Assembly (NCBI GenBank): GCA_020633975.1
Contig: JACKCR010000010.1
Coordinates: 65,839-129,838 of the forward strand
Origin: Candidatus Eiseniibacteriota bacterium
Lineage (GTDB): Bacteria > Eisenbacteria > RBG-16-71-46 > CAIMUX01
Direction of reading: 5' to 3'
Length of the DNA stretch: 64,000 bases
Below, in pieces: positions 1 through 39,976 of this stretch (position 1 is the first letter of the stretch; the number at the start of each line of letters is the position of its first letter). The notes under the pieces are model-generated. The model saw only the letters and a program-made list of their open reading frames with translations, was not told the origin of the DNA and did not search any database. The position numbers were made by a program, and so were the translations under genes.

Positions 1-63
1 GCGCTTCCGTCCCTTGGGAATGGAGTGCAGAGACTGTCACGCCACCACGCCGAGGACGGACCA

Positions 64-3000
64 ATGAAGCTGCGAACGTTCGATCGACGTGCCCTGCTGG
101 GCGTAGTCTGCACCCTCGTCGGCCTGGGCATCGGGGGCACACTTGCCGGTACCTCCCACCGCAATGAGGCGGTCCGGTCCGATTCCGTGGGCCGCTTCCT
201 TCAGCTCGCATTCGTGAGCGACGCCTTGGCAGAGTCCACGAACCCGCACGGTGACCTCGAGATCGACTGCTCGGTCTGTCACACCGCGACGTCTTGGCGG
301 GTGGACACCAAGATCGAAGGGTTCGACCATGCCGAGACGGCCCACTACCCGCTGACTCTCGCCCACTCGACGGTTCCTTGCCGCAGTTGTCACACCGACC
401 TGGTCTTCGAGAACGCGGGGACCAACTGCGCGGACTGTCACGACGACGTCCACAACGGCGACCTCGGCGATCGCTGCTCTCGCTGCCACACCGCGGACAC
501 CTGGAATGCGATGGACGCCGCCATCTCGGAGCACGCGAACACGGACTTCCCACTTCTGGGAACCCACGCCAGCACACCCTGCGCGTCGTGCCATCCGAGC
601 GCGCTCGCGGGCACGTTCCGCGACGCCCCGGTCGACTGCAGCGGATGCCACATGGATGAGTTCCTCCAGACGACGGACCCGAACCACTCCCGGGCCGGCT
701 TCCCGGAAGACTGTACATCCTGTCACTCGTCGACTGCCGTCGCCTGGGAGCCGGCGCAGTTCGAACATCCGTCGAGCTTCCCGCTCGAGGGTGGCCACTC
801 CGGCCCCGCCTGCGCCGACTGCCACCAATCGTCCTTCGACGACACCCCGACCGAGTGCGCCGGATGCCATCTCACCGACTATGACAACGCCGACCCGAGC
901 CATGACGGATTCCCGCAGGACTGCACGACCTGTCACTCCTCGGTCAGCTGGACTCCGGCGGACTTCGATCACGACCGGTCCTTCCCGCTCGTCGGCGCGC
1001 ATCAGGCGGTCGACTGCACGGACTGCCACACGTCCGGCTACACCGGAACGCCGACCGAGTGCTCCGATTGCCACGCTTCGGACCTCGAAGCGGCCGATCC
1101 GAACCACGATGGGTTCCCCGAAGACTGCCTCACCTGCCACACGATGAACGCGTGGGACCCCGCGGACTTCGACCACGACGAAGTATTCCCGCTGGAAGGA
1201 GCGCACCGCGACGTCCAGTGCGCGGACTGCCACACGAACGGGTACGAGGACACGCCGAGCCTCTGCAACGACTGTCACCGTGCCGACTTCGAGAACGCGG
1301 AGCCGGACCATGTGTCCGGAGCGTTCCCCGAGGACTGCACGACGTGCCACTCCCTCCTGGCCTGGGAACCCGCCGAGTTCGAGCATCCGGAGAGCTTCCC
1401 GCTCACACTAGGTCACGCAGACGTCGCTTGCTCTTCGTGCCACGAGTCCGGCTACGAAGACACGGAGACGGAGTGCGTCGGATGTCACCTCGCGGACTCA
1501 CAGGGCGCGACTCCGAGCCACGACGGTTTCGGAAGCGAGTGCACCTCGTGTCACTCCCTCGCGGCCTGGACGCCGTCGAACTTCGAGCATCCGCAGTCAT
1601 TCAAGCTCGACCAAGGACACTCAGGCGTGGACTGCGCCTCCTGTCACGCCGCCGGGTACGAAGACACACCGACCGAGTGCGCCGAGTGCCACCGCGCGGA
1701 CTACGAAGGCGCCGAGCCGGACCACGTCCAGGGCGGATTCCCGGATGACTGCACCACCTGCCACTCCCTCGCGGCGTGGCAGCCGGCGGCGTTCGAGCAC
1801 ACGCCGTCCTTCCCACTCACGCAGGGACACAGCGGACTCGTGTGTGCATCCTGCCACTCCTCCGGATTCGAGGACGTTCCGACGGACTGCGTGGAGTGTC
1901 ACCTCGCGGACTCCCAGCAAGCGTCACCGAGTCACGATGGTCTCGAGCAGGACTGCACCAAGTGCCACTCCACCGCGCAGTGGCAGCCCTCGAACTTCGA
2001 ACACCCGGCCACGTTCTCGCTCACGCAGGGTCACGCGGACGTGGACTGTGCGTCGTGCCACTCTTCGGGCTATTCGGGTACATCGACCGAGTGCGTCGAC
2101 TGCCACCTCGCGGACTCGCAGCAGGCGACCCCGAGCCACGACGGCTTCAGCCGGGAGTGCACCACCTGCCACTCGACGGTGGCCTGGCAACCGGCCGGTT
2201 TCGATCACCCGACGACGTTCCCGCTCACGCAGGGGCATGCGGACGTCGCGTGCGCGTCCTGCCACTCGGGCGGCTACGAAGGCACGTCCACCGAGTGCGT
2301 AGACTGCCACCTCGCGGACTCGCAGCAGGCGGTACCAAGTCACGACGGCTTCAGTCCGGACTGCACGACGTGTCACTCGACCGCTCAGTGGCAGCCGTCG
2401 AACTTCGAGCACCCGTCGACGTTCCCGCTGACGCTGGGACACGAAACCGTCGACTGCGCGTCGTGCCACACGAGTGGGTACGAAGGCACGCCCACCGACT
2501 GTGAGGGATGCCACCTCCCCGACTACGAGCAGGCGGAACCGGACCACGTCGACGGCGGCTTCCCACACGACTGCACTACCTGCCACTCGCTCGCCGCATG
2601 GCAGCCGGCCGCGTTCGAGCACACACCGACGTTCCCGCTCACGGAAGGTCATGCCGACCGCACCTGCGCGTCCTGCCATGCGTCTGGGTACGAAGGCACG
2701 CCGACCGAGTGCGTCGATTGTCACCTCGCGGACTCGCAGGCCGCCGTCCCGAGCCACGACGGACTCCCGCAGGACTGCACGACCTGTCACTCCACCACGA
2801 CCTGGAATCCGTCCAGCTTCGAGCATCCGACCTCGTTTGCGCTCACCGAGGGACACGACGGCGTCGACTGCGCGTCCTGCCATGCCTCCGGGTACGAAGG
2901 CACGTCGACCGACTGCGTCGACTGCCACCTCGCCGACTCGCAGGCGGCCGTGCCGAATCACGATGGACTCCCGCAGGACTGCACGACCTGTCACTCGACC

Positions 3001-6000
3001 ACGACCTGGAATCCGTCGAGTTTCGAGCACCCAATGTCGTTCGCGCTGACCGAGGGACACGAGGGTGTCGACTGCGCGTCCTGTCATACTTCCGGCTATG
3101 AGGACACATCGACCGACTGCGTCGACTGTCACCTCGCGGACTCACAGCAGGCCGAGCCGAGCCACGACGGACTCCCGCAGGACTGCACCACGTGCCACTC
3201 GACGACCGGGTGGGAACCGTCGGAGTTCGAGCACCCGAGCGAGTTCCCGCTCACCGAGGGACACGACGGCGTCGACTGCGCGTCTTGCCATGCCTCCGGC
3301 TACGAGGGCACGTCGCCAGAATGCGTCGACTGTCACCTCGTGGACTCGCAGCAGGCCGAGCCTAGTCACGACGGACTTCCGCAGGACTGCACGCAGTGCC
3401 ACTCGACCACGACCTGGGATCCGTCGAGCTTCGAGCATCCGAGCGAGTTCCCGCTGGCCGGTGGCCACGAAGGCGTCGACTGCGCGACCTGTCACACGTC
3501 CGGTTACGAAGGCACGTCGCCGGAATGCGTCGACTGCCATCTCGCCGACTCACAGCAGGCCGAGCCCAGTCACGACGAGTTCCCCACGGACTGTGCGCAT
3601 TGCCACACGATCCAGGGCTGGGTCCCCGCCGACTTCGACCACACCCCGACCTTCCCACTGACCCTGGGACACTCGGGACTCTCGTGCGGCTCCTGCCACT
3701 CCTCGGGGTACGAAGGAACTCCGACGGACTGCGCCGAGTGCCACATCGAAGACGCCCAGGGCGCGACTCCGAGCCACAGTCAGTTCCCGCTCGACTGCAC
3801 GGAGTGTCACTCGACAGCGAGATGGAATCCGTCGAACTTCGAGCACCCGGGCTCGTTCCCGCTCTCGGGCGGACACGACAACGTGGAGTGCAACTCCTGT
3901 CACACCGGCGGTTTCGAGAACACATCGACCGAGTGCGTGGACTGCCACCTGGCGGACTCCCAGCAAGCGGAGCCGAGCCACGACGAGTTCCCGACCGACT
4001 GCACGACCTGTCACACCATCCAGGGCTGGGTTCCGGCCGACTTCGAGCACACGCCGAGCTTCCCGCTCACCGAGGGGCACGAAGGTCTGGCCTGTGCGTC
4101 CTGTCACACCGCTGGGTACGAAGGCACGTCGCCCGAGTGCATCGATTGCCACCTCGTCGACTTCCAAGGGGCCGAACCGGACCACGTGGGTGGAGGGTTC
4201 CCGGAGGACTGCACGAGCTGTCACAACATGTCGACTTGGGAGGACGCGCAGTTCGTCCACACCGTGAGCTTCCCGCTCATCGGTGGGCATGCGGGTGTGT
4301 CTTGCCTGGAGTGCCACTCCGCGGGGTATGACAACACCCCGAACCAGTGTGTCGACTGTCACCTCGCGGACTCGCAGCAGGCCGATCCGAGCCACGATGG
4401 GCTGCCGACGAACTGCCAGACCTGTCACTCGCTCAACGGCTGGACCCCTTCGACCTTCCGGCACACGTCGGAGTTCCCGCTCACTCAGGGACACGCGGAC
4501 GTCGACTGCGCGTCGTGTCACAGCTCCGGCTACGACAACACGCCGACCGAGTGCATCGACTGCCATCTCACAGACTTCCAGGGCGCCGAACCGGACCACG
4601 TCGATGGAGGCTTCCCCGAAGACTGCACGACCTGCCACTCGATGGCGGAGTGGATCCCCGCGGAGTTCGACCACACACCGACGTTCCCGCTCTCCGGTGG
4701 ACACGACAACGTCCCGTGCGCGTCGTGTCACTCCGCCGGATACGAGAACACGCCGAACGTCTGCGTCGACTGCCACCTTGCCGACTCTCAGAGCGCCATC
4801 CCGAGCCATGACGGGCTCCCGACGGACTGTACGACGTGTCACACCATCCAGGGTTGGATCCCGTCGAGCTTCGAGCACACGCCGTCGTTCCCGCTGACGC
4901 AGGGACACGCGGACGTCGACTGCGCGTCCTGCCACTCGGCCGGCTACGACGGAACCCCGACCGATTGCATCGAGTGCCACCTCACGGACTACCAGGGCGC
5001 CGAACCGGACCACGTCCAAGGCGGCTTCCCCGAGGACTGCACGACGTGTCACTCGATGGCGGAGTGGATCCCTGCGGAGTTCGACCACACACCGACGTTC
5101 CCGCTCTCCGGCGGGCATGACAACGTCCCGTGCGCGTCGTGTCACTCAGCTGGATACGAGAACACACCGAACGTCTGCGTCGACTGTCACCTCGCGGACT
5201 CGCAGGGCGCGGTCCCGACGCACGACGGACTCCCCACGGACTGCACGACGTGTCACACGATCCAGGGGTGGGTCCCATCGAGCTTCCAGCACACGCCATC
5301 CTTCCCGCTCACACAGGGACACTCGGGCGTCGACTGCGCGTCCTGCCACTCGGCCGGCTACGACGACACGCCGACCGACTGCATCGACTGCCACCTCGCC
5401 GACTACCAGGGGGCGGAACCGAGCCACGACGGGTTCCCCGAGGATTGCTTGTCGTGTCACAACATGGCGTCGTGGGACGACGCGGACTTCTTCCACACGA
5501 CGGAGTTCCCGCTCACGGGTGGACACGACAACGTCCCGTGCGCGTCGTGTCACTCTGCCGGATACGAGAACACGCCGGCCGATTGCGTCGAGTGTCACCT
5601 CGCGGACTTCATGAACGCGGAGCCGGACCACGTCGACGGCGGGTTCCCCGAGGACTGCACGGCCTGCCACACCATCCAAGGCTGGACCCCGGCGGACTTC
5701 GAACACACACCGACGTTCCCGCTCGTCCAGGGACACTCGAACCTCGCCTGTGCCGACTGCCACTCCGCGGGATACGAGAACACGTCGCCCGAGTGCATCG
5801 AGTGCCACCTCGTCGACTATCAGACGGCCTCGCCCGACCATGACGGCGCAGGTTTCCCGACCGACTGCACGAGCTGTCACTCGCTCGTCGGATGGGACAA
5901 CGCGGACTTCGACCACGACAACAGCTGGTTCCCGATCTACACCGGAACCCACCGAGAGAAGTGGGACACCTGCACCGACTGCCATACCAACCCTGGTGAC

Positions 6001-6138
6001 TTCACGATCTTCACCTGCATCGATTGCCACGCGCATCGGCAGTCGGAGATGGATCAGAAGCACCAGGAAGAGAACGTGGACGACTACGTGTACGAGAGCA
6101 CTGCCTGCTACGCGTGCCACCCGAGAGGTCGCCATTGA
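64..6138 (+). CDS. Giant multiheme c-type cytochrome of about 2,025 aa. I count about 85 CxxCH motifs in about 28 tandem ~67-aa (201-nt) c7-like triheme modules, with an N-terminal signal/anchor. The start could instead be at 25.
   Basis: The repeating unit is FPLTxGH..CASCH..GYEGT.TEC.DCH.LADSQQA.PSHDG.P.DCTTCH..W.PS.FEH.. Each unit has 3 CxxCH and 3 additional conserved His, which fits bis-His ligation. The spacing resembles Geobacter PpcA (FPHKAH...CKKCH). A hydrophobic segment follows the ATG at 64. GAGGACGG lies 5 nt upstream of that ATG. Confidence 0.85.
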   Translation: MKLRTFDRRALLGVVCTLVGLGIGGTLAGTSHRNEAVRSDSVGRFLQLAFVSDALAESTNPHGDLEIDCSVCHTATSWRVDTKIEGFDHAETAHYPLTLAHSTVPCRSCHTDLVFENAGTNCADCHDDVHNGDLGDRCSRCHTADTWNAMDAAISEHANTDFPLLGTHASTPCASCHPSALAGTFRDAPVDCSGCHMDEFLQTTDPNHSRAGFPEDCTSCHSSTAVAWEPAQFEHPSSFPLEGGHSGPACADCHQSSFDDTPTECAGCHLTDYDNADPSHDGFPQDCTTCHSSVSWTPADFDHDRSFPLVGAHQAVDCTDCHTSGYTGTPTECSDCHASDLEAADPNHDGFPEDCLTCHTMNAWDPADFDHDEVFPLEGAHRDVQCADCHTNGYEDTPSLCNDCHRADFENAEPDHVSGAFPEDCTTCHSLLAWEPAEFEHPESFPLTLGHADVACSSCHESGYEDTETECVGCHLADSQGATPSHDGFGSECTSCHSLAAWTPSNFEHPQSFKLDQGHSGVDCASCHAAGYEDTPTECAECHRADYEGAEPDHVQGGFPDDCTTCHSLAAWQPAAFEHTPSFPLTQGHSGLVCASCHSSGFEDVPTDCVECHLADSQQASPSHDGLEQDCTKCHSTAQWQPSNFEHPATFSLTQGHADVDCASCHSSGYSGTSTECVDCHLADSQQATPSHDGFSRECTTCHSTVAWQPAGFDHPTTFPLTQGHADVACASCHSGGYEGTSTECVDCHLADSQQAVPSHDGFSPDCTTCHSTAQWQPSNFEHPSTFPLTLGHETVDCASCHTSGYEGTPTDCEGCHLPDYEQAEPDHVDGGFPHDCTTCHSLAAWQPAAFEHTPTFPLTEGHADRTCASCHASGYEGTPTECVDCHLADSQAAVPSHDGLPQDCTTCHSTTTWNPSSFEHPTSFALTEGHDGVDCASCHASGYEGTSTDCVDCHLADSQAAVPNHDGLPQDCTTCHSTTTWNPSSFEHPMSFALTEGHEGVDCASCHTSGYEDTSTDCVDCHLADSQQAEPSHDGLPQDCTTCHSTTGWEPSEFEHPSEFPLTEGHDGVDCASCHASGYEGTSPECVDCHLVDSQQAEPSHDGLPQDCTQCHSTTTWDPSSFEHPSEFPLAGGHEGVDCATCHTSGYEGTSPECVDCHLADSQQAEPSHDEFPTDCAHCHTIQGWVPADFDHTPTFPLTLGHSGLSCGSCHSSGYEGTPTDCAECHIEDAQGATPSHSQFPLDCTECHSTARWNPSNFEHPGSFPLSGGHDNVECNSCHTGGFENTSTECVDCHLADSQQAEPSHDEFPTDCTTCHTIQGWVPADFEHTPSFPLTEGHEGLACASCHTAGYEGTSPECIDCHLVDFQGAEPDHVGGGFPEDCTSCHNMSTWEDAQFVHTVSFPLIGGHAGVSCLECHSAGYDNTPNQCVDCHLADSQQADPSHDGLPTNCQTCHSLNGWTPSTFRHTSEFPLTQGHADVDCASCHSSGYDNTPTECIDCHLTDFQGAEPDHVDGGFPEDCTTCHSMAEWIPAEFDHTPTFPLSGGHDNVPCASCHSAGYENTPNVCVDCHLADSQSAIPSHDGLPTDCTTCHTIQGWIPSSFEHTPSFPLTQGHADVDCASCHSAGYDGTPTDCIECHLTDYQGAEPDHVQGGFPEDCTTCHSMAEWIPAEFDHTPTFPLSGGHDNVPCASCHSAGYENTPNVCVDCHLADSQGAVPTHDGLPTDCTTCHTIQGWVPSSFQHTPSFPLTQGHSGVDCASCHSAGYDDTPTDCIDCHLADYQGAEPSHDGFPEDCLSCHNMASWDDADFFHTTEFPLTGGHDNVPCASCHSAGYENTPADCVECHLADFMNAEPDHVDGGFPEDCTACHTIQGWTPADFEHTPTFPLVQGHSNLACADCHSAGYENTSPECIECHLVDYQTASPDHDGAGFPTDCTSCHSLVGWDNADFDHDNSWFPIYTGTHREKWDTCTDCHTNPGDFTIFTCIDCHAHRQSEMDQKHQEENVDDYVYESTACYACHPRGRH

Positions 6139-6179
6139 GGAGGAAGGCGATTCCTAGCCGCTCCGGTGTCGCGTGGGGT

Positions 6180-7916
6180 GTGCTTGTGGGTGCGGCCGTC
6201 GGCGCATTGGTCGTGGTCTCCGCATCGGCCGCGCTCGGGCAGATCGATCCGACGAGCGGATCGGTTGCTGCATCCGCGGGCGCGGTATCTTCCGCTGCGG
6301 AGTCCACTCGATCGGGCGATGCGCTCCTCCATCTCGAGGGGCACGTGCGCCAACTCTCCGTGGACTTCGTGTACGTCGACCTCGGCACGACCGACGGGCT
6401 CGCCATCGGCGACACACTCTCCGTCACCTCAGGCGCGAGCCGCGGCGAGTCGCTCGTCACGACCTACGTAGCTGGCCGTTCGGCTTCGTGTCAGCTCGTG
6501 TCGCGGCCGGGCACGACCGGATCGATCGCCGTGGGTGACGCCGTCGCAGCAACTCTCCACGGGCGAGGAGGCGAATCCCGTTCTCAGACTGCGCCGACCA
6601 AACTCTCGTTCCCGACCCCGCGAAGTGGGGTAATGCCCACGTCGTCAGGCGGCGCAAGGGCCCCACGCACGCGAGAAGGTTGGGGGCGCGTTCACGGCTC
6701 ACTCTCTGTCGATTGGCTCCAGACCGTGAGCGACAACGGGGAGAGGACGACCCGGGATCCGCGCGGACGGTTCGAGGTTCGCGGCCGCGACCTCTTCGGC
6801 AAGAACCTGCGTGCACGCGCAAGCCTCCGCACCGGGCGTCGCACTAGTTCGAGTTCGAGCGACGGAAGTTCCCTTCCGGAAGTCCGGCAACTCTGGTTCG
6901 ACTACCACGACGAGCCATCCAACGTGGGCGTTCGGGGCGGACGCCTCCTCGTCGCCGAAGCAGGGTCCTTCGCCTACCTCGACGGGGGTGCGGTCAACTA
7001 CGCGCCCGTCTCCCACCTGGACCTCGGACTGTATGCAGGTCGTCAGCCGGAATGGGTGGATCGAAGCGCCAAGGGGGACGTCTACATCGTGGGAGGCGCC
7101 GCGCGTTTGCCGATGGAGAGAGTCCGTTCCTCCCTACTCGTTTCGCTCCTCCGCGAGATCCGGCAGCAGGACCGCAACCGGGATTGGGCCTATGTCGAGG
7201 CGAGGTCGGAGCCGTTCACCACGTTGCGGCTCTACGCGCGGACCCAGTTCCAGCTGACCAAGCGAGACGAGTCCGAGCGACTCCCAAGCGAGTCTGATCC
7301 CGAATTCGATCCGACCGACTACGACGTCTTCCGCAGCTACCTAGAGTCGCGGCTCTCCGTCTCCGCCCGGTATCGGCCGGTCGACGAGTTCTGGTGGTCC
7401 CTCAGCTACGACGAGAGCTCGCTTCTCTCGGAGTACGAAGGCACCACGACCACGGAGGATCGTTTCGACCGCTCCGCGAGGAACGGCTGGCGCACGACGC
7501 TCAGTCTCGAACCCGCCGAGTTCTGGCGAACGCAGCTCGGCGGGAGCTGGCGGGAAGGCGAGTCTCAGGACGACCGGTGGTCCGTGAACGGGTACGTCCA
7601 GCGGCAGCGACTCGTATCCTGGCCGCTCGATCTGACCGTGCAGATGCGCGTGTTCGACGCCGGGTACTCGAAGGGATCGACGCCATCAGTCGAACTCGAA
7701 CACATCTCGCCACACGGCTACTCACTGGAGCTCCGTGGCGGGATGCACATCTACGAGGCAACTGGATCGACCGACGCGCGGTCGGATCAGTGGGTACGGA
7801 TCAGTTCGTCGGTCAGCCTGCCCTCGCGGTTCCGCATCCTCCTGGAAGCGGAAACTTCGTCGGGCGACAATGCGATCGGCTCTCGCTTCTACGGGCAAGT
7901 CGTGCGGAGTTTCTAG
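6180..7916 (+). CDS. Predicted secreted outer-membrane beta-barrel protein (porin-like) encoded immediately downstream of the giant cytochrome.
   Basis: The ORF frame 6024..7916 overlaps the cytochrome 3' end. An in-frame GTG near 6180 gives a signal-like N-terminus (MLVGAAVGALVVVSASAALGQ). There are alternating amphipathic segments, many aromatic-ending strands and a C-terminal ...GQVVRSF with terminal Phe, as is typical of OM beta-barrels. A GGAGGA SD is at 6138-6143, so the true start is uncertain. Confidence 0.5.
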   Translation: MLVGAAVGALVVVSASAALGQIDPTSGSVAASAGAVSSAAESTRSGDALLHLEGHVRQLSVDFVYVDLGTTDGLAIGDTLSVTSGASRGESLVTTYVAGRSASCQLVSRPGTTGSIAVGDAVAATLHGRGGESRSQTAPTKLSFPTPRSGVMPTSSGGARAPRTREGWGRVHGSLSVDWLQTVSDNGERTTRDPRGRFEVRGRDLFGKNLRARASLRTGRRTSSSSSDGSSLPEVRQLWFDYHDEPSNVGVRGGRLLVAEAGSFAYLDGGAVNYAPVSHLDLGLYAGRQPEWVDRSAKGDVYIVGGAARLPMERVRSSLLVSLLREIRQQDRNRDWAYVEARSEPFTTLRLYARTQFQLTKRDESERLPSESDPEFDPTDYDVFRSYLESRLSVSARYRPVDEFWWSLSYDESSLLSEYEGTTTTEDRFDRSARNGWRTTLSLEPAEFWRTQLGGSWREGESQDDRWSVNGYVQRQRLVSWPLDLTVQMRVFDAGYSKGSTPSVELEHISPHGYSLELRGGMHIYEATGSTDARSDQWVRISSSVSLPSRFRILLEAETSSGDNAIGSRFYGQVVRSF

Positions 7917-7940: not shown

Positions 7941-9287
7941 GTGGGGATGTCGGAGTCGGGATTCATCTGGGGCGGAGTCGTCGTCGTCAGCGCGGTGGTG
8001 TTCGCATACTACCTGAGGCAGTTCACGCGACGCGCGAAGGCCGATGAGGCGAGGCAAGCGAGTGCCCGGCAGGCCGGGATCGACAAGGCCGTCTCCCAGC
8101 ATCCGCACATCGACGAACTCTCCTGCATCGGCTGCGGCAGCTGCGTGGACGCCTGCCCCGAAGGAGACGTCCTCGGCATCGTGTCGGGAGTCGCCGTCCT
8201 CATCAACGGCCTCCGCTGCGTAGGGCACGGCCGCTGCGCCGAGGTCTGTCCGGTCGGCGCGATCCAGATCGGGCTCGGCGACATCAGCATGCGAACCGAC
8301 CTCCCGATCCTCGGGGCGGGGCAGGAGACGACCGTACCAGGCGTGTTCGTCGCAGGTGAACTGAGCGGGTTCTCGCTCATCCGCAACGCGATCACTCAAG
8401 GCGCGGAAGTAGCAGACCACATCGCGAAGCATCGGCCCAGGTCGACCGACCCGAACGTTCTCGACCTCGTCGTCGTCGGAGCCGGGCCCGCGGGTATCTC
8501 CGCCGCACTCAGTGCGAAGCGAGCAGGGCTCCGCTGCGTCGTCGTCGACCAACAAGGCGTCGGTGGGACGATCCTCCAGTTCCCTCGACGAAAGCTCGTC
8601 CTCACGCAGCCGGTGGAACTGCCGCTCTACGGGATGTTGCGGTCGAGCGAGTACACGAAGGAAGAGCTGGTCGACATCTGGAGCGAGATCCCCGAACGGT
8701 TCGATCTCGACGTGCGGATCGGGCATCGCGTCGTGGGCGTGGAGAAGACGGGCGGAGGATTCCGAGTCTCCACCGAGAACGGCCCGTCTTGGGACACCAT
8801 GAACGTAATGCTCGCGCTGGGTCGCCGTGGATCGCCCCGCAAGCTCGGAGTTCCCGGCGAGAACCAGGCCAAGGTGCTCTATCAGCTCCTCGACGCGAAG
8901 TCTTACAAGGGACGTCGAGTGCTGGTGGTTGGTGGAGGGGACTCCGCAGTCGAAGCCGCCATGGCGCTCGCAAAGCAGAACGGCACTCAGGTGACGATCT
9001 CCTATCGCAAGGACCAGTTCGCCCGGATCAAGAAGCGGAACCAGGATCGGCTGGACCCACTCCTCGCGTCCGGAAAGATCAAGACGCTCTACAGCTCGAA
9101 CGTGCTCTCCGTGGGCGCCGACCGAGTGCGTCTCGCCGTCCCCGAAGGCGAACTGGACCTGCCCAACGACGACGTCTTCGTGCTGATCGGCGGCGACCCG
9201 CCCTACCCGTTCCTCCGCGGCATCGGCATCCGCTTCGGCGGGGAGACGACGTCGGCCACCGAGCGGAGCGCGGTCGCCCAGGCCTGA
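7941..9287 (+). CDS. Membrane-anchored 2x[4Fe-4S] ferredoxin-domain protein fused to an FAD/NAD(P)-binding pyridine-nucleotide-disulfide-type oxidoreductase domain.
   Basis: N-terminal TM helix (FIWGGVVVVSAVVFAYY). Two cluster motifs CIGCGSCVDACPEG and CVGHGRCAEVCPVG. Two Rossmann motifs VVVGAGPAGISAA and VLVVGGGDSAVE. The SD ggaagggaag lies upstream. Confidence 0.8.
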   Translation: MGMSESGFIWGGVVVVSAVVFAYYLRQFTRRAKADEARQASARQAGIDKAVSQHPHIDELSCIGCGSCVDACPEGDVLGIVSGVAVLINGLRCVGHGRCAEVCPVGAIQIGLGDISMRTDLPILGAGQETTVPGVFVAGELSGFSLIRNAITQGAEVADHIAKHRPRSTDPNVLDLVVVGAGPAGISAALSAKRAGLRCVVVDQQGVGGTILQFPRRKLVLTQPVELPLYGMLRSSEYTKEELVDIWSEIPERFDLDVRIGHRVVGVEKTGGGFRVSTENGPSWDTMNVMLALGRRGSPRKLGVPGENQAKVLYQLLDAKSYKGRRVLVVGGGDSAVEAAMALAKQNGTQVTISYRKDQFARIKKRNQDRLDPLLASGKIKTLYSSNVLSVGADRVRLAVPEGELDLPNDDVFVLIGGDPPYPFLRGIGIRFGGETTSATERSAVAQA

Positions 9288-9478: not shown

Positions 9479-10723
9479 TTGTCCCAGCCTTCCGTCGGTC
9501 GTGGTTCGGTCCTCACTCTCCTTCTACTCAGCTCGATGACCGTCATGGCGGGAGCGACGATCTCGCCGACCCTTCCCTCGATCGGCAAGGTGTTCGCGGA
9601 CACCCCGAGAAGCGACCTGTTGGTCCGGCTCGTCCTGACCCTGCCGGCACTCTTCACGGCGATCGGCGCGCCGATCGCGGGTGGGATCATCGATCGGTTC
9701 GGTCGACGCCCTCTCCTCTTCGGCGTGATCGTTCTCTACGCACTGGCCGGAGGATCCGGACTCTTTGCCCGTGACCTCTCAGAACTGCTCATCGGAAGAG
9801 CAGGGCTCGGGCTCGCCGTAGGAGGCATCCTCACTACGGCGACCACGCTGATCGCGGACTACTTCGGCGGCGACGAGCGGTCGAAGGTTCTGGCATGGCA
9901 GTCGGCATTCATGGGGATCGGTGGGGTCGGCTTCGTGACGTTGGGAGGGTTCCTCACCGACGTGAGCTGGAGGGCACCGTTCAGCGTCTACCTCCTGGCT
10001 CTCGTCTACCTTCCCCTCGTCGCCCTCTTCCTGCCCGAACCCCGCCGCTCGGGCACGGGAGAGCAAGTCGACGACGGTCGGGAGTCGGCCCCCGGCCCCG
10101 ACGGCTCCAGTGAGGCGCTCACTTCGAGCGGAGCGACCGCGAGTTCGGCGATGGTTCCGCGCCGTGTTCTCGGCTTGGTGTACGCGCTCGGATTCCTCGG
10201 CATGATCGTCTTCTTCGCCTTGCCCGTTCAGCTGCCGTTCCACCTCCAGGCCATCGACGACGTGCCCGCGACGAAGGTGGGGCTTGCGCTCGCTACGATG
10301 ACCGCGGTTGCGGCGTGCACCTCTCTCGCCTACCCGAAGCTGCGTGCGCGGCTGTCGTTTCCAGCGATCTTCGGCGTGCAGTTCCTGCTCCAGGGCGCCG
10401 GATACCTGCTCCTCGGCTCCGCGCCGAGCTACACCGGCGCGTTTCCCGGACTGGTCATCGCAGGGGCCGGCGCCGGACTGCTGGTCCCGAACGTCCAGCT
10501 CTGGACGAGTCGGCTCGCGCCCGCCGAGCTTCGCGGACGAGTTCTCGGTGGACTCGGACTCTGCTTGTTTCTCGGGCAGTTCCTGTCCCCCATGGTGACG
10601 CAGCCGCTCGCCACCAGCCGCGGGTACGGGGGGATGTATGGTTCGCTCGCGTCCTTCCTCCTCGCCTTTTCTGCGCTGTTCATCTTGGGGTCGATCGTTC
10701 GGAAGAATCGGCGGCCGAGGTGA
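9479..10723 (+). CDS. MFS-family transporter. TTG start at 9479 preceded by an AAAGGAG SD. The longer ORF 8789.. is a spurious N-terminal extension.
   Basis: 12-TM profile with the MFS signature region G..IDRFGRRPLL and two 6-helix halves. Only from about 9479 onward is the sequence hydrophobic-periodic. Confidence 0.75.
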   Translation: MSQPSVGRGSVLTLLLLSSMTVMAGATISPTLPSIGKVFADTPRSDLLVRLVLTLPALFTAIGAPIAGGIIDRFGRRPLLFGVIVLYALAGGSGLFARDLSELLIGRAGLGLAVGGILTTATTLIADYFGGDERSKVLAWQSAFMGIGGVGFVTLGGFLTDVSWRAPFSVYLLALVYLPLVALFLPEPRRSGTGEQVDDGRESAPGPDGSSEALTSSGATASSAMVPRRVLGLVYALGFLGMIVFFALPVQLPFHLQAIDDVPATKVGLALATMTAVAACTSLAYPKLRARLSFPAIFGVQFLLQGAGYLLLGSAPSYTGAFPGLVIAGAGAGLLVPNVQLWTSRLAPAELRGRVLGGLGLCLFLGQFLSPMVTQPLATSRGYGGMYGSLASFLLAFSALFILGSIVRKNRRPR

Positions 10724-11118
10724 GCTGCGCTCGGCCGGCGCGAGCCGATGCGGCCTAGCCGAGCCCGGCCCGACCTCGCTGGGCCCAGCGGGCCCGAGTA
10801 GTGCGTCTCTACCCACCCTACCCAAACTCCACGATGGACTAGCCAAGGCCCCGCAGCGGCCTCCGCGAGACACGCTCGACGCTCTCCGTGGCACGAGTGG
10901 TTGCGATTTGGGCCCGGGCCGGCGGCCACGGGCCTTTCTGGCTCCGAGTTCACCCGTGCCACCTCCAGAGCGCGTCCATTCCCGTGCACACTGCACGTTC
11001 GACCGTGCGATCCGACCGGTTCCCAACGGCCACGATCGACCCATTGGCGTGGATGTCCGCGGAGGGGAACGACCGGAAGAAAATCGGCCAGTGGCACCTT
11101 CATTGCTGCAACAAGAGT

Positions 11119-14100
11119 ATGCGGTGGACCGTCCGAATCCTGGTGGCCTGGGGCCTAGTCATCTGTATGGGGATCGCGAGCCACTCGGCAAACGCCGAGA
11201 GCTACCCCAAGACTGCGCAGATCTGTACTCAGGTCGGCACCTACAGCGACGCGCAGCGAGACAGCCTCTCGTGGTACGACCTCGTGGCGTTCACGGAAGG
11301 TCCCAACGTCGTCGACGACCTCAGAGGCCGGAATCCCGAGATCGACCTACTGTTCGCGTGGATGCCCCAGCTCATCTATGACCACGAAGAGGACGAGACG
11401 TTCTGGTACCCCGACACCAGCTGGAGTCTCGTCCGCCTCGCCGAGTTCTATGCCCTCCAGAACGACTGGTACCTCTACAACACCGATGGGAGCCGTCCTC
11501 GGCTCTACAACTCCTGGATCAGCAACTGGACGCCGGACTGCCCTCCGGGCACGTATGGCGATTCGAACGGGCTGACCTACGCAGAGTGGCTGGTCCAGAA
11601 GGCCATTCCCCGAATCATCCACGGAGAGGCCCGCTGGGAAGAATGGGGACCGAACAGCTCCGCCTACCAAGGCTTCTTCTTCGAGGTCATGGGCGACTGT
11701 ATGAACGTCTTCCCCGACGCGGACCCAGACCGTGACGGGATTCCGGAGGGCATCTACTCGTCCTGTTGCTCAGGAGGTTCGGAAGACCCCCTCGCAGTCA
11801 TGATGCGCGAAGTGAACGTTGCGTTCGGGAACGGTCTCCGCGAGACGCTGGGGCCCGACATCGCCATCATCATCAACGGCGTCAACAACTGCGTCCGTCC
11901 CGACTGGAACTGGATCAACGGCATCAAGCTCGAATCCTGGAACCAGTCCCCCAATCCTTCGTGGCTGGACTGGTGGAGCTTCTTCTACTCGCTGACCAAC
12001 TACTCGGGAGACGTCAGCTGGGAGACCGGCTACACGTGGGCCGAGGAAAACCTCGGGCGTTCCGGCAACGACAGCGCTGAAGGCTGGGACATGACCATGC
12101 TCCAGGTGATCATGAAGGACACCTGGACCGAGAGCTTCACCCAGAAGCGGCGAGCCTACGGGATGGGCACGGCCATGCTCGGTGACGGCTACTACACCCA
12201 GACCGTGGACCAGCAGCGGATCCACTACACCTCCGAGTTGGACTGGGACTTCGGGGATGCGGTGGAAGACTACTTCGTCGAGATCTACGAAGGAGTCACT
12301 CCATACGACTCCCTGTATGTCCGCCGATTCGAAAAGGGGATGGTCGAGGTCAACCCGAACGAGACCATGATCGCCGGCGTCTCGTCGGAAACGTCCCGGT
12401 TCACGTGGTGGGAGCCGGTCACAGACCTCACGGCCGAGGCAGCTGAAGGAAGCGCCATTCGCCTTCAGTGGACTGCGCCCGAAGACCTGTCGATCGAGGG
12501 TCAGGAGATCCGATACGCATCGTTCCCCATCGACGAGGACTCCTGGGACTCCGCTACGACGTGGCCAGAATTCGTCGAGTCCGAACCGGGGCACGTCCAC
12601 TCGTATCTCCTGACCGGACTTCCTGGGCCTGCCACGTACTACGTCGCGATGAAGAACCGCGTCCACGGGAAGCTCGAGTACACGGTCTCGAACCTCGGGG
12701 TGGCCACGAACGGCGCGCCGGAGCCGGACGAAGACGCGCCGTCCCCGGTCGAAGACCTCTCCGTCCTCGAGGTCGGTGACCAGACCGCTCGAATCCGCTG
12801 GTCCGCACCCGGTGACGACGGAAGCGAAGGAGCGTGTTCTCTCTACGAGGTTCGAACGCGCCGTGGCACCGCGATCCTCACAGAGGCGGACTGGGACGAA
12901 GCCAGACCGGTCTCCGACCCTCTCCCCGCTCCCGACGGCTACGGAAGTGAACAGACCCTCGAAATCACGGGCTTGATCAGCGGTACCCTCCAGGCCATCG
13001 CACTTCGCGGCGTCGACGACGCCGGCAACCTGGGCCCGCTTTCGAATCCGTTCACCGTTCTCACCAGCGGCAACCCTCCCCACCAGCTCGATCAGTTCCC
13101 TCCCGCTACGATCGACGATCTCAGCATCGTGTGGGTCGACAGTACCGAAGTGATGCTCGAGTGGACGGCAGTCGGCGACGACGGCAACGAGGAACGGGCA
13201 GAGGCCTACGAGGTTCGGGTACTCGAGGGCGGAGAGATCACGAACAAGGTCGATTGGGACTTGGCGCAACTCGCGCCTGTGCCGGCGCCGGAACCCGCGC
13301 TCCCAGGCCAACTCGAACAGTTCACCTTCCCAGGCCTCACCCCGTCGACGTTCTACGGGTTCGCGGTTCGTGCCATCGACGACGTCGGAAACGTCGGTGG
13401 CATCTCGAACTCTCCGACCGCGACGACGGAGTCTTCGGAAGAGGATCCGCCTCCACCACCGCCCGATGATCCGGTACCGCCGGTGGAGATCGACGACCTC
13501 ACCATCTCGGCCGTCGACTCGACGCGGATCCAGCTCCGTTGGACAGCTCCCGAGGACGGCGAAGACGGCGCAGTCCTCGCCTACGAGATCGCTGTGCTCG
13601 CAGGCGACTCGCTCGAAATCCCGGCCGGCTGGGACGACGCCGAAATCGTCTCCGGACCGGCCACGCCGGCGAGCCCGGGAACGATCGAGTCCTTCTGGAT
13701 CGAAGCGCTCACGCCGGAAACTCTCTACGGGTTCTCGATCCGTTCGGTCGACGCCGACACGCTCTGGTCACCACCGTCCGCTCCCGTCCACGCGACCACG
13801 CTCGCTGGGCCGGACGAGCCCGACCCGGATCCGGACCCCGATCCACCCGCGGCGATCGACGATCTCGCAGCCGCGAGCGTCGACTCCGTCCGCTGCAAGC
13901 TGAGTTGGACCGCACCTGCCGACGGGCTCGGTGAAACTGTCGCGTCGTACGAACTCGGCTTCCTGATCGACAAGCCGCTCGCCCAAGAGGCCGACTGGGA
14001 ACTCGCCACTCACTACGCGGGCCCGTTCCCCCTGACCCCGGGCAGCAGCCAGTCCCATTGGGTTTCCGACCTCGAGCCCGGGCACGCCTACGGAGTCGCC

Positions 14101-23968: not shown

Positions 23969-25387
23969 ATGCCGCAGACGGCGACGCGTTGCTACGAGGT
24001 CTTCGCTCCAGCCGATGGCTCGATACTGGTCGAGGTCCCGCTCGAACCCAAGAGCGAGATCGCGAAGAAGCTGACCAGGATCGAGTCGTCCAAGACGAGG
24101 GTCAATCCCGCCGACGTCCAGCCTTTCCTCGATCGGCTCCGTGTTCGGCTCCAAGCGAACCGGGGCAAGTTGATCGAGATCATGCAGGCCGAGACCGGCT
24201 TCATCACTCGTGATACCGAGGAGATCGTCGATTCGTCGATCGAGTTCCTCCAAGACTTCGAGACCTACGCAACGGAGCAGGTGGACCGGAGGCAAATCGT
24301 CCGCCACTCCTACTCTTCGAGCGTAGGGCGGGACATGCTCGTCATTCAGAGACCCTGTCGTTGCGTCGCCGCCGTGGTCCCGCAGAACGCGTCCCTCACT
24401 CTCAGCATCATCATCATTGCGTCGGCGCTCTATGCCGGTTCCAAGGTGATCTTGCGCCCTGCGCTCCAGTGCAGTGCCTCCGGGGCGATCCTCTCCGATC
24501 TAGTCATGGAGAGCGACCCGCCCGCGGGCTCGGTCACCTTCACGAACTGCCTGGCCAAGGACTTCCTCGAGGCCTGCTGCGAGTCCGACGCCGTCGATGT
24601 GATCCACTACATCGGCAGCAACCAGTACGCTCTCTCCGTCCTCAACAAGTCGTTCGAAGCCGGCAAGACCTGCCTCCTCGACGGCCAAGGCAACGGCCTG
24701 CTCTACGTCGACGAAACCTTCCCGCTGGGCGAGGCCGTCGAGATCATCGCCAGCGGGTCGACTCGCTACAACGGCGAGACCTGCACATCGATCAACGGCG
24801 TTCTGATCGCTCCCCCGGTCTACGAGGAGCTGAAGGAAGCCCTCACGGCACGGTTCGAGCAGTTCATCACGGGAGACCCGAAGGACGAACGTACCGACAT
24901 CGGCCCGCTCTTCAGCGCCCGCCAGGCCTTGGAGTTCCGTTCCGGACTCCTCGACCAAGGGAGTCACAAACTACTGGTCGGGGGCGACATCGACGGCGCC
25001 TACGTTCGGCCGGCCGTCGTCGTCGGCGTGAAGCACACCGACATCATGGCGATGCAGGGCTTCTTCGGACCGGCAGTCTGGATCGCTTCGTCCTCCTTGG
25101 ACGAAGTCTCCACCTGGCTGTCTTCGAACCAGTTCCCGCTCAGTGACACCGTTCTCAGCAGAGACCCTGCCGTGATGAGGCACTTCGCTGCCATCACCCA
25201 CGCCGCTCGCGTCTGCATCAACCAGGATCCGTCCATCGAGTCGATGTTCGAGCCTTGGGGCGGCTACCCCCCAAGCGGCCTCAACCCGGTGTCGGTCTGG
25301 ATAGACAAGTACAAGCGCACGTTCCAGGTCGACGGGCGACTGACCGACCTCACGAGCATGCGGATGACCGGCACGGACAGAGGCTGA
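23969..25387 (+). CDS. Divergent aldehyde-dehydrogenase-superfamily protein.
   Basis: About 470 aa with a Rossmann-like GSxxxG region, a candidate catalytic Cys in YNGETCTSINGVL and a candidate Glu in LLDGQGNG. SD GGAGAGGG. Similarity to canonical ALDH is weak. Confidence 0.5.
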   Translation: MPQTATRCYEVFAPADGSILVEVPLEPKSEIAKKLTRIESSKTRVNPADVQPFLDRLRVRLQANRGKLIEIMQAETGFITRDTEEIVDSSIEFLQDFETYATEQVDRRQIVRHSYSSSVGRDMLVIQRPCRCVAAVVPQNASLTLSIIIIASALYAGSKVILRPALQCSASGAILSDLVMESDPPAGSVTFTNCLAKDFLEACCESDAVDVIHYIGSNQYALSVLNKSFEAGKTCLLDGQGNGLLYVDETFPLGEAVEIIASGSTRYNGETCTSINGVLIAPPVYEELKEALTARFEQFITGDPKDERTDIGPLFSARQALEFRSGLLDQGSHKLLVGGDIDGAYVRPAVVVGVKHTDIMAMQGFFGPAVWIASSSLDEVSTWLSSNQFPLSDTVLSRDPAVMRHFAAITHAARVCINQDPSIESMFEPWGGYPPSGLNPVSVWIDKYKRTFQVDGRLTDLTSMRMTGTDRG

Positions 25388-27255: not shown

Positions 27256-27295
27256 TTGCGACGATGACCTCGATCCAGCGGCCGCCATCGATGGA

Positions 27296-39889: not shown

Positions 39890-39976
39890 CCATCAACAGC
39901 TGACTCCGGCCACCCGGAATCGCTATTCTCTTCCTGGCCGAATGCAACGTTGCCCATCCCACTCGAGGAGGTCCCC

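Follow-up and report, generated by a model that had tools for sequence, protein, structure and literature searches.

The 64-kb window, by which we mean the whole stretch of DNA analyzed here, opens with a long reading frame crowded with CxxCH motifs, and this raises the question of what kind of protein it encodes and what such a protein might do in its host. An earlier note had placed about 85 such motifs in a frame at positions 25-6138 of the + strand; automated translation counted exactly 85, whereas of the two remaining + frames one contains a single CxxCH and the other none, and the same motif count found no CxxxCH or CxxxxCH motifs in the giant-cytochrome frame. The frame is real, but its GTG at position 25 is not the favored start. 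Translation likely begins at the ATG at position 64, giving a giant multiheme c-type cytochrome of 2,024 aa (64-6138, + strand; pI 4.4) that is identical to NCBI MCB9466090.1 from a Candidatus Eisenbacteria MAG and has a mass of 217 kDa as the apoprotein, or ~269 kDa with hemes. A hydropathy scan of the whole protein revealed a single hydrophobic segment, at the N-terminus (64-150, + strand; MKLRTFDRRALLGVVCTLVGLGIGGTLAG), which corresponds to the signal peptide or signal anchor for export that had been proposed. Homologs in other phyla carry plain Sec signals followed by S/NPHG, and neither a lipobox nor a recognizable secretion domain was detected in the giant cytochrome or in most homologs, which have a Sec-type signal only.

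Instead of the ~28 equal modules with a strict 201-nt period that had been described for this frame, we found an N-terminal cap with 6 CxxCH at irregular spacing (232-675, + strand; starting with STNPHGDLEIDCSVCH), an array of 25 canonical tandem triheme modules with 75 CxxCH (676-5829, + strand), and a C-terminal cap with 4 CxxCH (5830-6135, + strand), which consists of a variant module beginning WFPIYTGTH and ends in CYACHPRGRH. The modules measure 68 or 70 aa, i.e. 204 or 210 nt, and form a two-module super-repeat; for the tract, TRF reported 204 as the period, along with a super-repeat of 414 nt, at 69-72% matches. Both caps have counterparts in a 40-heme ortholog from Emticicia, in which the gap pattern of the N-terminal cap (36-37, 16, 16, 34-35, 19, 25) recurs and whose C-terminus (CYSCHPRGDS) resembles that of the giant. 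Heme spacing over the entire protein is 23.8 aa per heme.

Alignment of the 25 modules identified the invariant residues P4, H6, C13, C16, H17, W22, F27, H29, F33, L35, H39, C44, C47, H48, C59, C62, H63 and D66, and no module column contains a conserved Met; the whole protein has 11 Met. The three additional invariant histidines per module that the earlier note had described were present in 25/25 modules (H6 in SHDG/PDH, H29 in F[ED]H, H39 in GH), one of them preceding heme 1 and two lying between hemes 1 and 2. Six invariant histidines per module are enough for bis-His ligation of three hemes, and the hemes are probably bound and ligated in this way. An AlphaFold2 model of a 4-module fragment was unusable (pLDDT 56), and heme stacking and linearity are therefore assumed in what follows.

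The invariant histidines, together with the Pfam matches, uphold the original reading of a multiheme c-type cytochrome built from tandem triheme modules. Pfam multiheme families scored 7e-89 and 1.5e-72 on the giant cytochrome; the best family for the whole protein was Cytochrome_C7 (7e-89, 27 stretches, 292 bits with the cut-off at 24.8), and there were matches to Cytochrom_c3_2 and Cytochrom_CIII as well. The high content of Cys (8.4%) and His (8.7%) might also be expected of a metal-binding repeat protein without heme, for example one that binds zinc or resembles metallothionein, and zinc-ribbon-type Pfam families did give faint chance matches. We regard this reading as barely conceivable, given that every Cys lies inside a strict CxxCH, that the protein carries an export signal, that the top Pfam families are all multiheme cytochromes, and that a heme lyase, the cytochrome maturase CcsBA, is encoded in many homolog operons. 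No Ccm or Ccs maturation genes were found within the 64-kb window.

How closely the modules resemble cytochrome c7 is a separate matter. Cytochrome_C7 (PF14522) is the top family, in line with the "c7-like" description given earlier; however, one module by itself scored 24.2 bits, below the gathering cut-off of 24.8, over HMM positions 14-66 of 67, and hhalign aligned the module with Geobacter PpcA collinearly at a probability of 15.8%. Among solved structures, no c7 chain was recovered by the module profile at E<=1 or by the whole protein at E<=0.01, and neither query showed significant similarity to any PDB entry, the GSU1996 chains included. The modules may thus be called c7-like in a tentative sense.

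Since repeats in metagenome assemblies are error-prone, we considered that the tract could have been collapsed, expanded or joined chimerically, so that no 85-heme ORF exists as such. Module number does differ among near-identical strains, and the gene is split in two in one sister assembly. Nevertheless, an assembly artefact is unlikely, and we give this explanation very little weight. The longest exact repeat in the DNA of the tract is 38 bp and nucleotide identity between modules averages 65% (range 54-92%), so that reads can be placed within it; the frame is open over 6.1 kb in perfect module register; independent assemblies agree on 85-88 motifs, with 23/26 modules identical; and hundreds of homologs share the same architecture.

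These homologs also bear on the earlier view that single polypeptides of this size are rarely if ever described, which does not hold: 38 of the best 120 homologs carry 85-137 motifs, and an 85-heme protein was already reported by He et al. 2017 (PMC5566968). Passages of Wasmund et al. 2024 (PMC11495043) describe cytochromes with >100 and 112 motifs from activated-sludge Saprospiraceae and Paludibaculum, giving motif counts and speculation on EET or capacitor roles, and a passage of a 2026 preprint on peat metagenomes (bioRxiv 10.64898/2026.05.27.727921) reports a 116-motif cytochrome. Heme-number variation among close relatives has likewise been noted in parts of the earlier literature, and a passage on Rifle Burkholderiales describes variable-heme 'type 2' cytochromes (PMC7399161). 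The passages of the giant-cytochrome papers make no mention of the cap-(triheme)n-cap rule, the operon or the flavoprotein partner. In our searches, proteins from Saprospiraceae and Bryobacterales proved to be homologs of the giant, with 36-44% identity and the same triheme periodicity, and one Bryobacterales protein has 112 motifs; their modules are 72-75 aa long, compared with the shorter 68 or 70 aa in the Eisenbacteria member. The giant belongs to a widespread family of variable-length "heme wire" cytochromes that had already attracted notice, and is one of its long members.

The main clue to its function is a conserved porin-cytochrome operon, a context absent from the earlier note. In Eisenbacteria the gene order is a diheme-b-like IMP, a 20-heme cytochrome, the 85-heme cytochrome, a beta-barrel and an Fe-S flavoprotein; the window itself starts near the end of the partner cytochrome gene and continues through the giant, porin and flavoprotein (FerFAD) genes, while the IMP and the full 20-heme cytochrome are taken from sister contigs. 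Two of these, L085 and L084, contain the IMP, the 20-heme cytochrome (MHC20), giant, porin, FerFAD and an MFS gene, and the flanks of L085 are 99.4% identical to the window. The 3′ end of the partner multiheme cytochrome occupies positions 1-67 (+ strand, frame 2), ending in RFRPLGMECRDCHATTPRTDQ and the stop TGA at 65-67; in L085, the cytochrome that precedes the giant has the same 21 residues at its C-terminus, and its full ORF contains 20 CxxCH. The ATG of the giant (64-66) overlaps this stop, and such an ATGA overlap suggests translational coupling.

A further overlap (TTGA) joins the stop of the giant to the TTG start of the outer-membrane beta-barrel ('porin') gene (6135-7916, + strand). 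The 593-aa product has a Sec signal peptide and a C-terminal Phe, as do 45/45 members of the porin family that were examined, and its AlphaFold2 model (pLDDT 81) is a confident beta-barrel of ~22 strands with a small N-terminal beta domain, for which the top matches in a fold search were all outer-membrane barrels. Downstream lies the membrane-anchored FerFAD (7947-9287, + strand; Pfam Fer4 and Pyr_redox_3), which shares 43% identity with its counterparts in operons from other phyla. Its N-terminal TM helix is followed by basic residues, and its sequence also contains a Cys cluster motif of the ferredoxin type as well as dinucleotide motifs for FAD and NAD(P), features that are consistent with a cytoplasmic orientation. 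Its top NCBIfam match, under the cut-off, was a YpdA-type thiol reductase, and FerFAD could serve redox maintenance instead. An MFS transporter (9479-10723, + strand; Pfam MFS_1, candidate start) is a conserved neighbor: the MFS gene comes after FerFAD in both Eisenbacteria sister contigs, while in L003 it is near FerFAD, yet on the opposite strand and with one gene between. Whether it belongs to the system is uncertain.

The IMP of L085 has 304 aa and two WX3HX13H motifs, beginning WLSLH and WHVIH, as well as SGVFG; these motifs (two WX3HX13H and SGXXG) recur in three other phyla. All matches of the IMP to diheme-b Pfam families fell under threshold, that to Ferric_reduct being insignificant (E 9.4). 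A distant homolog in Methylophaga has a 2Fe-2S protein on one side and a cytochrome c on the other. The operon is present in at least 581 species genomes, and a plasmid carried by Emticicia oligotrophica, which is in culture, has it too; the hosts belong to Eisenbacteria, Bacteroidota, Ignavibacteriota and Acidobacteriota. An equivalent gene set surrounds homologs in Bryobacterales and Lewinellaceae, and the same holds for a further 80 species genomes. Across 83 related loci, the IMP was found in 83, FerFAD in 75, a 20-26-heme partner in 67 and the porin in 54. In 57/64 loci the heme number of the partner cytochrome is 20 or 23; that of the second cytochrome varies between 10 and 112 and mostly follows 3n+1 (10+3n). 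A fixed partner and a variable second cytochrome fit a constant periplasmic span plus an unconstrained outer part.

The observed heme-motif architecture, conserved operon and beta-barrel fold lead us to propose, with moderate confidence, that the ORF encodes the variable-length multiheme cytochrome of a PCC3-type operon and acts as the heme wire of a trans-envelope electron conduit. In the locations, electron source and direction of flow that we infer, the cytoplasmic flavoprotein would accept electrons from NAD(P)H, the two b hemes of the IMP would pass them over the inner membrane, and the 20/23-heme cytochrome of conserved length would bridge the periplasm. From a position at the barrel, whether docked or threaded through it, the variable cytochrome would then prolong the heme chain past the outer membrane; at ~1 nm per heme, the chain could extend tens of nanometers, to insoluble or distant acceptors, and electron flow might also reverse, from donors. 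NAD(P)H-driven electron export alone would not conserve energy, which counts against the proposal.

The giant could instead stay in the periplasm as an electron store, buffering up to 85 electrons per molecule under a fluctuating supply of acceptors. This capacitor role is the literature's alternative for such proteins, and it would accommodate both the Sec-type signal unaccompanied by any surface-anchoring or secretion motif and the freely variable heme number, as expected if capacity and not geometry counts. On the other hand, the giant gene is translationally coupled to that of the outer-membrane barrel and almost always adjoins one, 85 hemes in an extended chain would exceed the width of a periplasm several-fold, and the length-conserved second cytochrome already suits a periplasmic role. 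We therefore consider storage rather unlikely.

A conduit working in reverse, in which extracellular donors (Fe(II) minerals, reduced humics or cathodes, for example) supply the electrons, a role suggested for the PCC3 of iron-oxidizers, seems to us more doubtful still. PCC3 was discovered in Fe(II)-oxidizing Gallionellaceae and Leptothrix, where electron import is a hypothesis, and multiheme chains can in principle run either way, a point raised for Mto/Mtr. However, the partner conserved in this operon is an Fe-S flavoprotein that binds NAD(P), and the reduction of NAD(P)+ by donors at the level of Fe(II) is strongly uphill and opposes the membrane potential. Bacteroidota, Ignavibacteriota, Acidobacteriota and Eisenbacteria are mostly organotrophs, which also counts against uptake, and Ignavibacteria with 33-40-heme cytochromes have been found enriched on anodes, which are electron acceptors.

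Among known systems, the Geobacter cytochromes offer a parallel to the module. PpcA likewise places three CxxCH within ~70 aa, in the order of c7 hemes I, III and IV, but the distal histidines are placed differently, two before heme 1 and one between hemes 1 and 2 in PpcA, and the N-terminal part of the c7 model has no counterpart in the modules here. The likeness to GSU1996 drawn earlier holds for the tandem triheme design, that is, the common concept of covalently linked triheme domains as a heme chain, but it did not extend to a PDB match and is therefore an analogy. GSU1996 has 4 domains, compared with 25 modules here; each of its domains contains one His-Met heme, whereas the modules here have almost no Met; and it is a soluble periplasmic protein, whereas the giant sits in a porin operon.

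An MtrCAB-type complex, in which decaheme MtrA/DmsE and MtrC/OmcA cytochromes are combined with an MtrB-family porin, was considered and rejected. The barrel resembles generic porins or ushers at least as closely as it does MtrB, which sets it apart from MtrCAB/MtoAB and Geobacter OmaB-OmbB-OmcB, and the cytochromes differ from the MtrA/MtrC-family decahemes, with DmsE-family matches sub-threshold only. MtrCAB-type systems further have a lipoprotein outer cytochrome, absent here, and a CymA-type quinol dehydrogenase as their entry, in place of which we propose the diheme-b protein and the flavoprotein. That pair recalls the NOX/FRE exporters, which share two HX13H heme-b motifs and an NAD(P)- and FAD-binding cytoplasmic partner, and He et al. 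2017 (PMC5566968) noted that the IMP resembles a ferric-reductase domain. The components here are on two polypeptides, however, and the FNR-like flavoprotein of NOX/FRE is replaced by one that has a TrxR/YpdA-like fold and carries a ferredoxin domain in addition; the resemblance is a functional analogy only.

The closest comparison is with PCC3. PCC3 has been reported from Proteobacteria only (PMC5566968, PMC10734462), whereas the hosts here belong to four other phyla, and the operon here adds a conserved Fe-S flavoprotein gene that He et al. 2017 (PMC5566968) do not mention. In the two documented PCC3 extracellular cytochromes, those of L. cholodnii and a Riftia symbiont, the repeats measure 44-47 aa or 16-23 aa; a triheme repeat of ~66 aa does occur in these PCC3 loci, but in the periplasmic cytochrome, whereas here the large cytochrome carries the triheme c7-like module. 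Because repeat types differ, orthology of the giant with the 'PCC3 extracellular MHC' is uncertain. The extracellular cytochrome of PCC3 went undetected in proteomes of Sideroxydans lithotrophicus ES-1. The partner cytochromes are alike, with ~20-27 hemes from ~66-78-aa triheme repeats, both systems include an outer-membrane beta-barrel, and PCC3, too, has a reported 85-heme member. The PCC3 IMP of He et al. 2017 (PMC5566968) is, as here, ~300 aa long with two WX3HX13H motifs and SGXXG, and gene content and order (IMP, periplasmic cytochrome, larger cytochrome, porin) are common to both, as in Slit_1446-1449 of S. lithotrophicus ES-1. Judged by gene order, IMP motifs and published descriptions, the operon thus appears to match the layout that He et al. 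2017 termed "PCC3", and the heme spacing of the giant falls inside their wire-like range of 22-39 aa per heme (PMC5566968).

Translation of the forward-strand ORF at 25..6138 confirmed that it exists and that it encodes exactly 85 CxxCH motifs, matching the approximate manual count of the earlier note. The remaining two forward frames over the same stretch contained 1 and 0 such motifs, and no CxxxCH or CxxxxCH variants were present in the translation. The proposed stop codon was retained, but the GTG at 25 is not the likely start: ATG 64 is preferred. ATG 64-66 overlaps TGA 65-67, the stop of the upstream gene in frame 2, and the resulting 2,024-aa product (64..6138, +) is identical to NCBI MCB9466090.1, a "cytochrome c3 family protein" of Candidatus Eisenbacteria bacterium. 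When this giant cytochrome was cut in register, it resolved into an N-terminal region with 6 irregularly spaced CxxCH motifs, a central array of 25 tandem modules of 68 or 70 aa, each with three CxxCH at spacings of 31, 15 and 22/24, and a C-terminal region with 4 CxxCH. Tandem Repeats Finder returned a repeat period of 204 nt and a 414-nt two-module super-period, at 69-72% identity; the strict 201-nt period and the about 28 modules first reported were approximations of this 204-nt period and of 25 modules with a cap at each end. Alignment of the 25 modules gave 18 invariant positions, and the six invariant His per module predicted earlier were all found, with H17, H48 and H63 inside CxxCH and H6, H29 and H39 outside, which is the number that bis-His ligation of three hemes would require. 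A catalytic multiheme reductase was rejected on the same evidence, since all modules carry the six invariant His, and the counts of CxxCH, CxxxCH and CxxxxCH and the module alignment showed no sign of an open-coordination or CxxCK-type site. The computed mass of the apoprotein is 217 kDa, rising to ~269 kDa with 85 hemes, and the computed pI is 4.4.

The sole hydrophobic segment of the giant lies at residues 10-28, and its N-terminus, MKLRTFDRRALLGVV (window 64-108, residues 1-15), fits the twin-arginine (Tat) consensus. The RR pair is also present in L085, an Eisenbacteria sister contig, while homologs in other phyla carry ordinary Sec signals. This fit is unexpected, as c-type cytochromes are normally exported unfolded via Sec and matured after export. 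A Tat route based on the DRRALL motif was set aside, since c-type maturation follows Sec export and the homologs lack the RR.

Two further readings concern the repeat tract itself. The longest exact DNA repeat in window 1-6200 is 38 bp, and pairs of modules are 54-92% identical at the DNA level (mean 65%). With repeats this short and modules this divergent, the tract is no obvious assembly product, and an artefact is effectively excluded. A non-heme, metal-binding repeat protein is likewise effectively excluded on family matches, as the best Pfam families are all multiheme cytochromes: the whole giant matched Cytochrome_C7 (7e-89, 27 stretches), together with Cytochrom_c3_2 and Cytochrom_CIII, and among NCBIfam models DmsE-type and HmcA were matched below threshold only. 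For a single module the best Pfam family was again Cytochrome_C7, which scored 24.2 bits (cut-off 24.8) and was matched over HMM positions 14-66 only. In an hhalign comparison with PpcA, the triheme cytochrome c7, the module was collinear and its hemes 1, 2 and 3 paired with c7 hemes I, III and IV, but at a probability of only 15.8%. Neither the module profile (HMM) nor the whole giant (phmmer) had a significant match in the PDB, with none at E<=0.01 for the latter. An AlphaFold2 model of a four-module fragment, built on a 38-row alignment, reached a pLDDT of 56 and a pTM of 0.28, and a Foldseek search with this low-confidence model was empty. Two features of the group formed by PpcA and GSU1996, the Geobacter c7-domain polymer, were tested in the giant and were not found there. 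The "c7-like triheme module" proposed earlier therefore describes the design fairly and is the best family label available, whereas membership of the PpcA/GSU1996 group is not established.

A search of 5.8 billion proteins recovered 804 relatives of the giant at E<=1e-10. The best 120 of these span 1,232-3,415 aa and 44-137 CxxCH, with named sources in the Bryobacterales, Saprospiraceae, Lewinellaceae, Ignavibacteriaceae and further Bacteroidota, and the closest relatives beyond the giant's own cluster, among the matches listed, were only 42-44% identical. The suggestion that single polypeptides of this size are rarely if ever described did not survive this search, since at least 85 CxxCH occur in 38 of the 120 best relatives and several papers report such proteins. 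An 85-heme protein is recorded in Agromonas oligotrophica S58 (He et al. 2017, PMC5566968), giant multiheme cytochromes with more than 100 and with 112 motifs are on record in Wasmund et al. 2024 (PMC11495043), up to 116 motifs are given in a 2026 peat preprint (bioRxiv 10.64898/2026.05.27.727921), and a 2025 preprint lists more than 100 motifs found by genome mining, the largest solved multiheme polypeptide having 16 hemes. The giant is thus already deposited and annotated, and it belongs to a large family noted in several papers. The largest homolog, P0020 (3,415 aa, 137 CxxCH), begins with an N-terminus typical of the 20/23-heme cytochromes that accompany the giants (LSPGPL..H..LEG..C..CH) and continues with ~37 triheme modules in regular array. 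This homolog may represent either a natural fusion of both operon cytochromes or a distinct lineage.

The lengths within this family appear to follow a simple rule. Among the 120 best relatives, 101 have a heme number that leaves a remainder of 1 on division by 3, and a 40-heme protein of Emticicia has the same N-cap spacing as the giant and a similar C-terminus. From this shared architecture, the family formula reads as cap(6) + n x 3 + cap(4), or 10 + 3n hemes, with n = 25 in the giant, n = 10 in Emticicia and a smallest common form of 13 hemes (n = 1). The array is also seen to differ between near-identical relatives. Compared with L085 (L085:3690-9962) and the homologous protein P0279, 23 of 26 modules are 100% identical to those of the window. 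Module 11 of the window is absent from L085 and P0279, but an additional unit of two modules follows module 20 there, so that they have one module more in all. The pattern resembles unequal recombination in the array, although assembly differences may contribute. In a second Eisenbacteria sister contig, from a MAG that is 83% related, the giant is called as two overlapping ORFs (L084:3929-10004) of 485 and 1,571 aa, whose 17 and 68 CxxCH add to 85; the split reflects a frameshift or else an error of sequencing within the tract.

An exact 40-mer search of GTDB genomes gave no match, and the genes upstream of the window were inferred from these sister contigs, whose flanks are 99.4% (L085) and about 82-85% (L084) identical to the window. 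In both, the order is a 304-aa membrane protein, a 20-heme cytochrome, the giant, a porin, a flavoprotein and an MFS transporter, and window 2-64 encodes the last 21 residues of the 20-heme cytochrome, which are identical. The 304-aa protein, an inner-membrane diheme-b-like protein (IMP), carries two WX3HX13H motifs and SGXXG, shared with IMP homologs in Acidobacteriota and Bacteroidota; its Pfam matches, all below threshold, are to diheme-b families. The best start of the 593-aa porin (+), which has a Sec signal peptide, is TTG 6135, overlapping the giant's stop (TTGA). No Pfam or NCBIfam match was found for the porin, and neither collection has a model for the porin or the IMP. It is nonetheless ~23% identical to the gene directly 3' of giant cytochromes in three other phyla, and a signal peptide and C-terminal Phe were present in 45/45 family members examined. 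Word-indexed searching gave only 4-7 relatives, so the alignment was built from an exhaustive HMMER search, in which the family comprises 2,386 representative clusters. The AlphaFold2 model (96-sequence alignment; pLDDT 81, pTM 0.66) predicts, with confidence, a beta-barrel of ~22 strands preceded by a small N-terminal beta domain. Other members of the barrel family, including P0129, P0131, P0132, P0139 and P0142, reach 900-1,150 aa through a 400-600-aa N-terminal extension without CxxCH, and many of them are without the terminal Phe.

The flavoprotein (7947-9287, +; 447 aa) combines an N-terminal TM helix, basic residues just after it, a ferredoxin-type Cys motif, and FAD- and NAD(P)-binding glycine motifs, and is 43% identical to a gene within the homologs' operons; the MFS transporter comes next. 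Further downstream, the window encodes a 1,839-aa protein with at least 6 fibronectin type III domains (10888-16407, +), syntenic with a 1,748-aa gene in L084, and a hybrid histidine kinase with GAF, HisKA, HATPase, two receiver and Hpt domains, with a HAMP histidine kinase and a receiver-HATPase protein nearby (17686-20607, -, and 25255-28306, +). A 915-aa beta-propeller protein (39950-42697, +) ends in a FlgD_ig-like domain, a C-terminal type frequently found on proteins that FCB-group bacteria secrete or display at the surface.

A search of GTDB species genomes that used the IMP as probe confirmed at least 581 loci. Across 83 loci the operon consists of the IMP (83), the flavoprotein (75), a 20- or 23-heme cytochrome (a 20-26-heme partner in 67), a second cytochrome and the barrel (54), with a GW-domain lipoprotein and a CcsBA heme lyase as frequent additions. 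The flavoprotein gene lies after the IMP in Bacteroidota or after the barrel, as in the window. The first cytochrome has 20 or 23 motifs in 57 of 64 loci, whereas the second varies from 10 to 112. A complete seven-gene cassette (ccsBA, IMP, flavoprotein, 23-heme and 40-heme cytochromes, barrel and GW-domain lipoprotein) is carried by pEMTOL02, a 100-kb plasmid of the cultured Bacteroidota isolate Emticicia oligotrophica DSM 17448 (NC_018749.1 78197-90781; genes EMTOL_RS21085-RS22055), and this location suggests mobility. A smaller triad with the same cytoplasm-to-periplasm logic occurs on a plasmid of Methylophaga pinxianii (L087:7073-10427), where a distant IMP homolog (~25% identity) has a 612-aa 2Fe-2S protein on one side and a 254-aa cytochrome c on the other, adjoined by a ccm operon.

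Taken together, the most likely role of the giant is that of the outer, length-variable part of a heme conduit across the cell envelope, a reading in which the location of each cytochrome, heme occupancy, the electron donor and the flow direction are all inferred. NAD(P)H would reduce the membrane-anchored flavoprotein on the cytoplasmic side, its Fe-S cluster(s) would hand electrons on, the two b hemes of the IMP would carry them across the inner membrane and the length-conserved 20/23-heme cytochrome across the periplasm, and the variable cytochrome, at or through the barrel, would deliver them outside. This reading is favoured because the three central genes are translationally coupled, the predicted barrel fold is confident, one cytochrome is constant in length while the other varies, the heme density is wire-like, the genes beside the Methylophaga IMP homolog encode a 2Fe-2S protein and a cytochrome c, and related Ignavibacteria with 33-40-heme cytochromes were enriched on anodes. 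The main rival would have the same heme-dense protein act as a periplasmic electron store; the barrel and the contrast between the two cytochromes argue for the conduit. Electron uptake would be a variant of the same conduit, run in reverse. The ~100 Angstrom covered by the 10 hemes of MtrA (cited in He et al. 2017, PMC5566968) sets a scale of ~1 nm per heme, so that an extended chain of 85 hemes would be roughly 70-85 nm long.

The trans-envelope conduit can be elaborated into a more specific proposal, which we hold only tentatively and think rather unlikely to be right in full: a self-contained, quinone-independent export line. Here NAD(P)H would feed the Fe-S flavoprotein and the diheme-b membrane protein as a split, NOX-like module, passing electrons through the 20/23-heme cytochrome to a single-polypeptide nanowire of genetically tunable length (10+3n hemes; here 85, about 70-85 nm) that protrudes through the usher-sized barrel. 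Unequal recombination would alter module number on strain-level timescales, tuning reach, and the whole cassette would move horizontally, being plasmid-borne in Emticicia.

Cytochromes of 80 to >100 hemes are known from genome mining, and none has been purified or located. The window by itself adds little, being one more long family member; what is added here is the cap-(triheme)n-cap rule, a partner cytochrome of constant length set against an outer one that varies, a flavoprotein partner that is near-universal, and the strain-level gain and loss of modules. If the conduit reading is true, a single gene product would form a conductive chain of a length similar to that of polymerised cytochrome filaments, and extracellular electron transfer would extend to organotrophs that are abundant in sludge, soils and sediments (Bacteroidota, Ignavibacteriota, Acidobacteriota and Eisenbacteria). 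Cultured E. oligotrophica DSM 17448, with its plasmid-borne 40-heme ortholog, makes the system testable and offers an experimental host.

The closest known system is PCC3, a porin-cytochrome gene cluster defined bioinformatically in Proteobacteria (He et al. 2017, PMC5566968), which is described yet uncharacterised, and whose extracellular cytochrome was undetected in S. lithotrophicus ES-1 proteomes. By gene order, motifs and heme counts, the operon is PCC3-like: its gene set and order are those of Slit_1446-1449 (IMP, periplasmic cytochrome, extracellular cytochrome and porin), and the likeness extends to the IMP motifs, the 21-27 hemes of the PCC3 periplasmic cytochrome and the density of 22-39 aa per heme. 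It differs in that its hosts belong to non-proteobacterial phyla and in its conserved Fe-S flavoprotein, of which He et al. 2017 (PMC5566968) make no mention. The triheme module is also placed differently, lying in the large cytochrome here but in the periplasmic cytochrome of the two documented PCC3 examples, whose extracellular cytochromes are instead built from 44-47-aa or 16-23-aa repeats.
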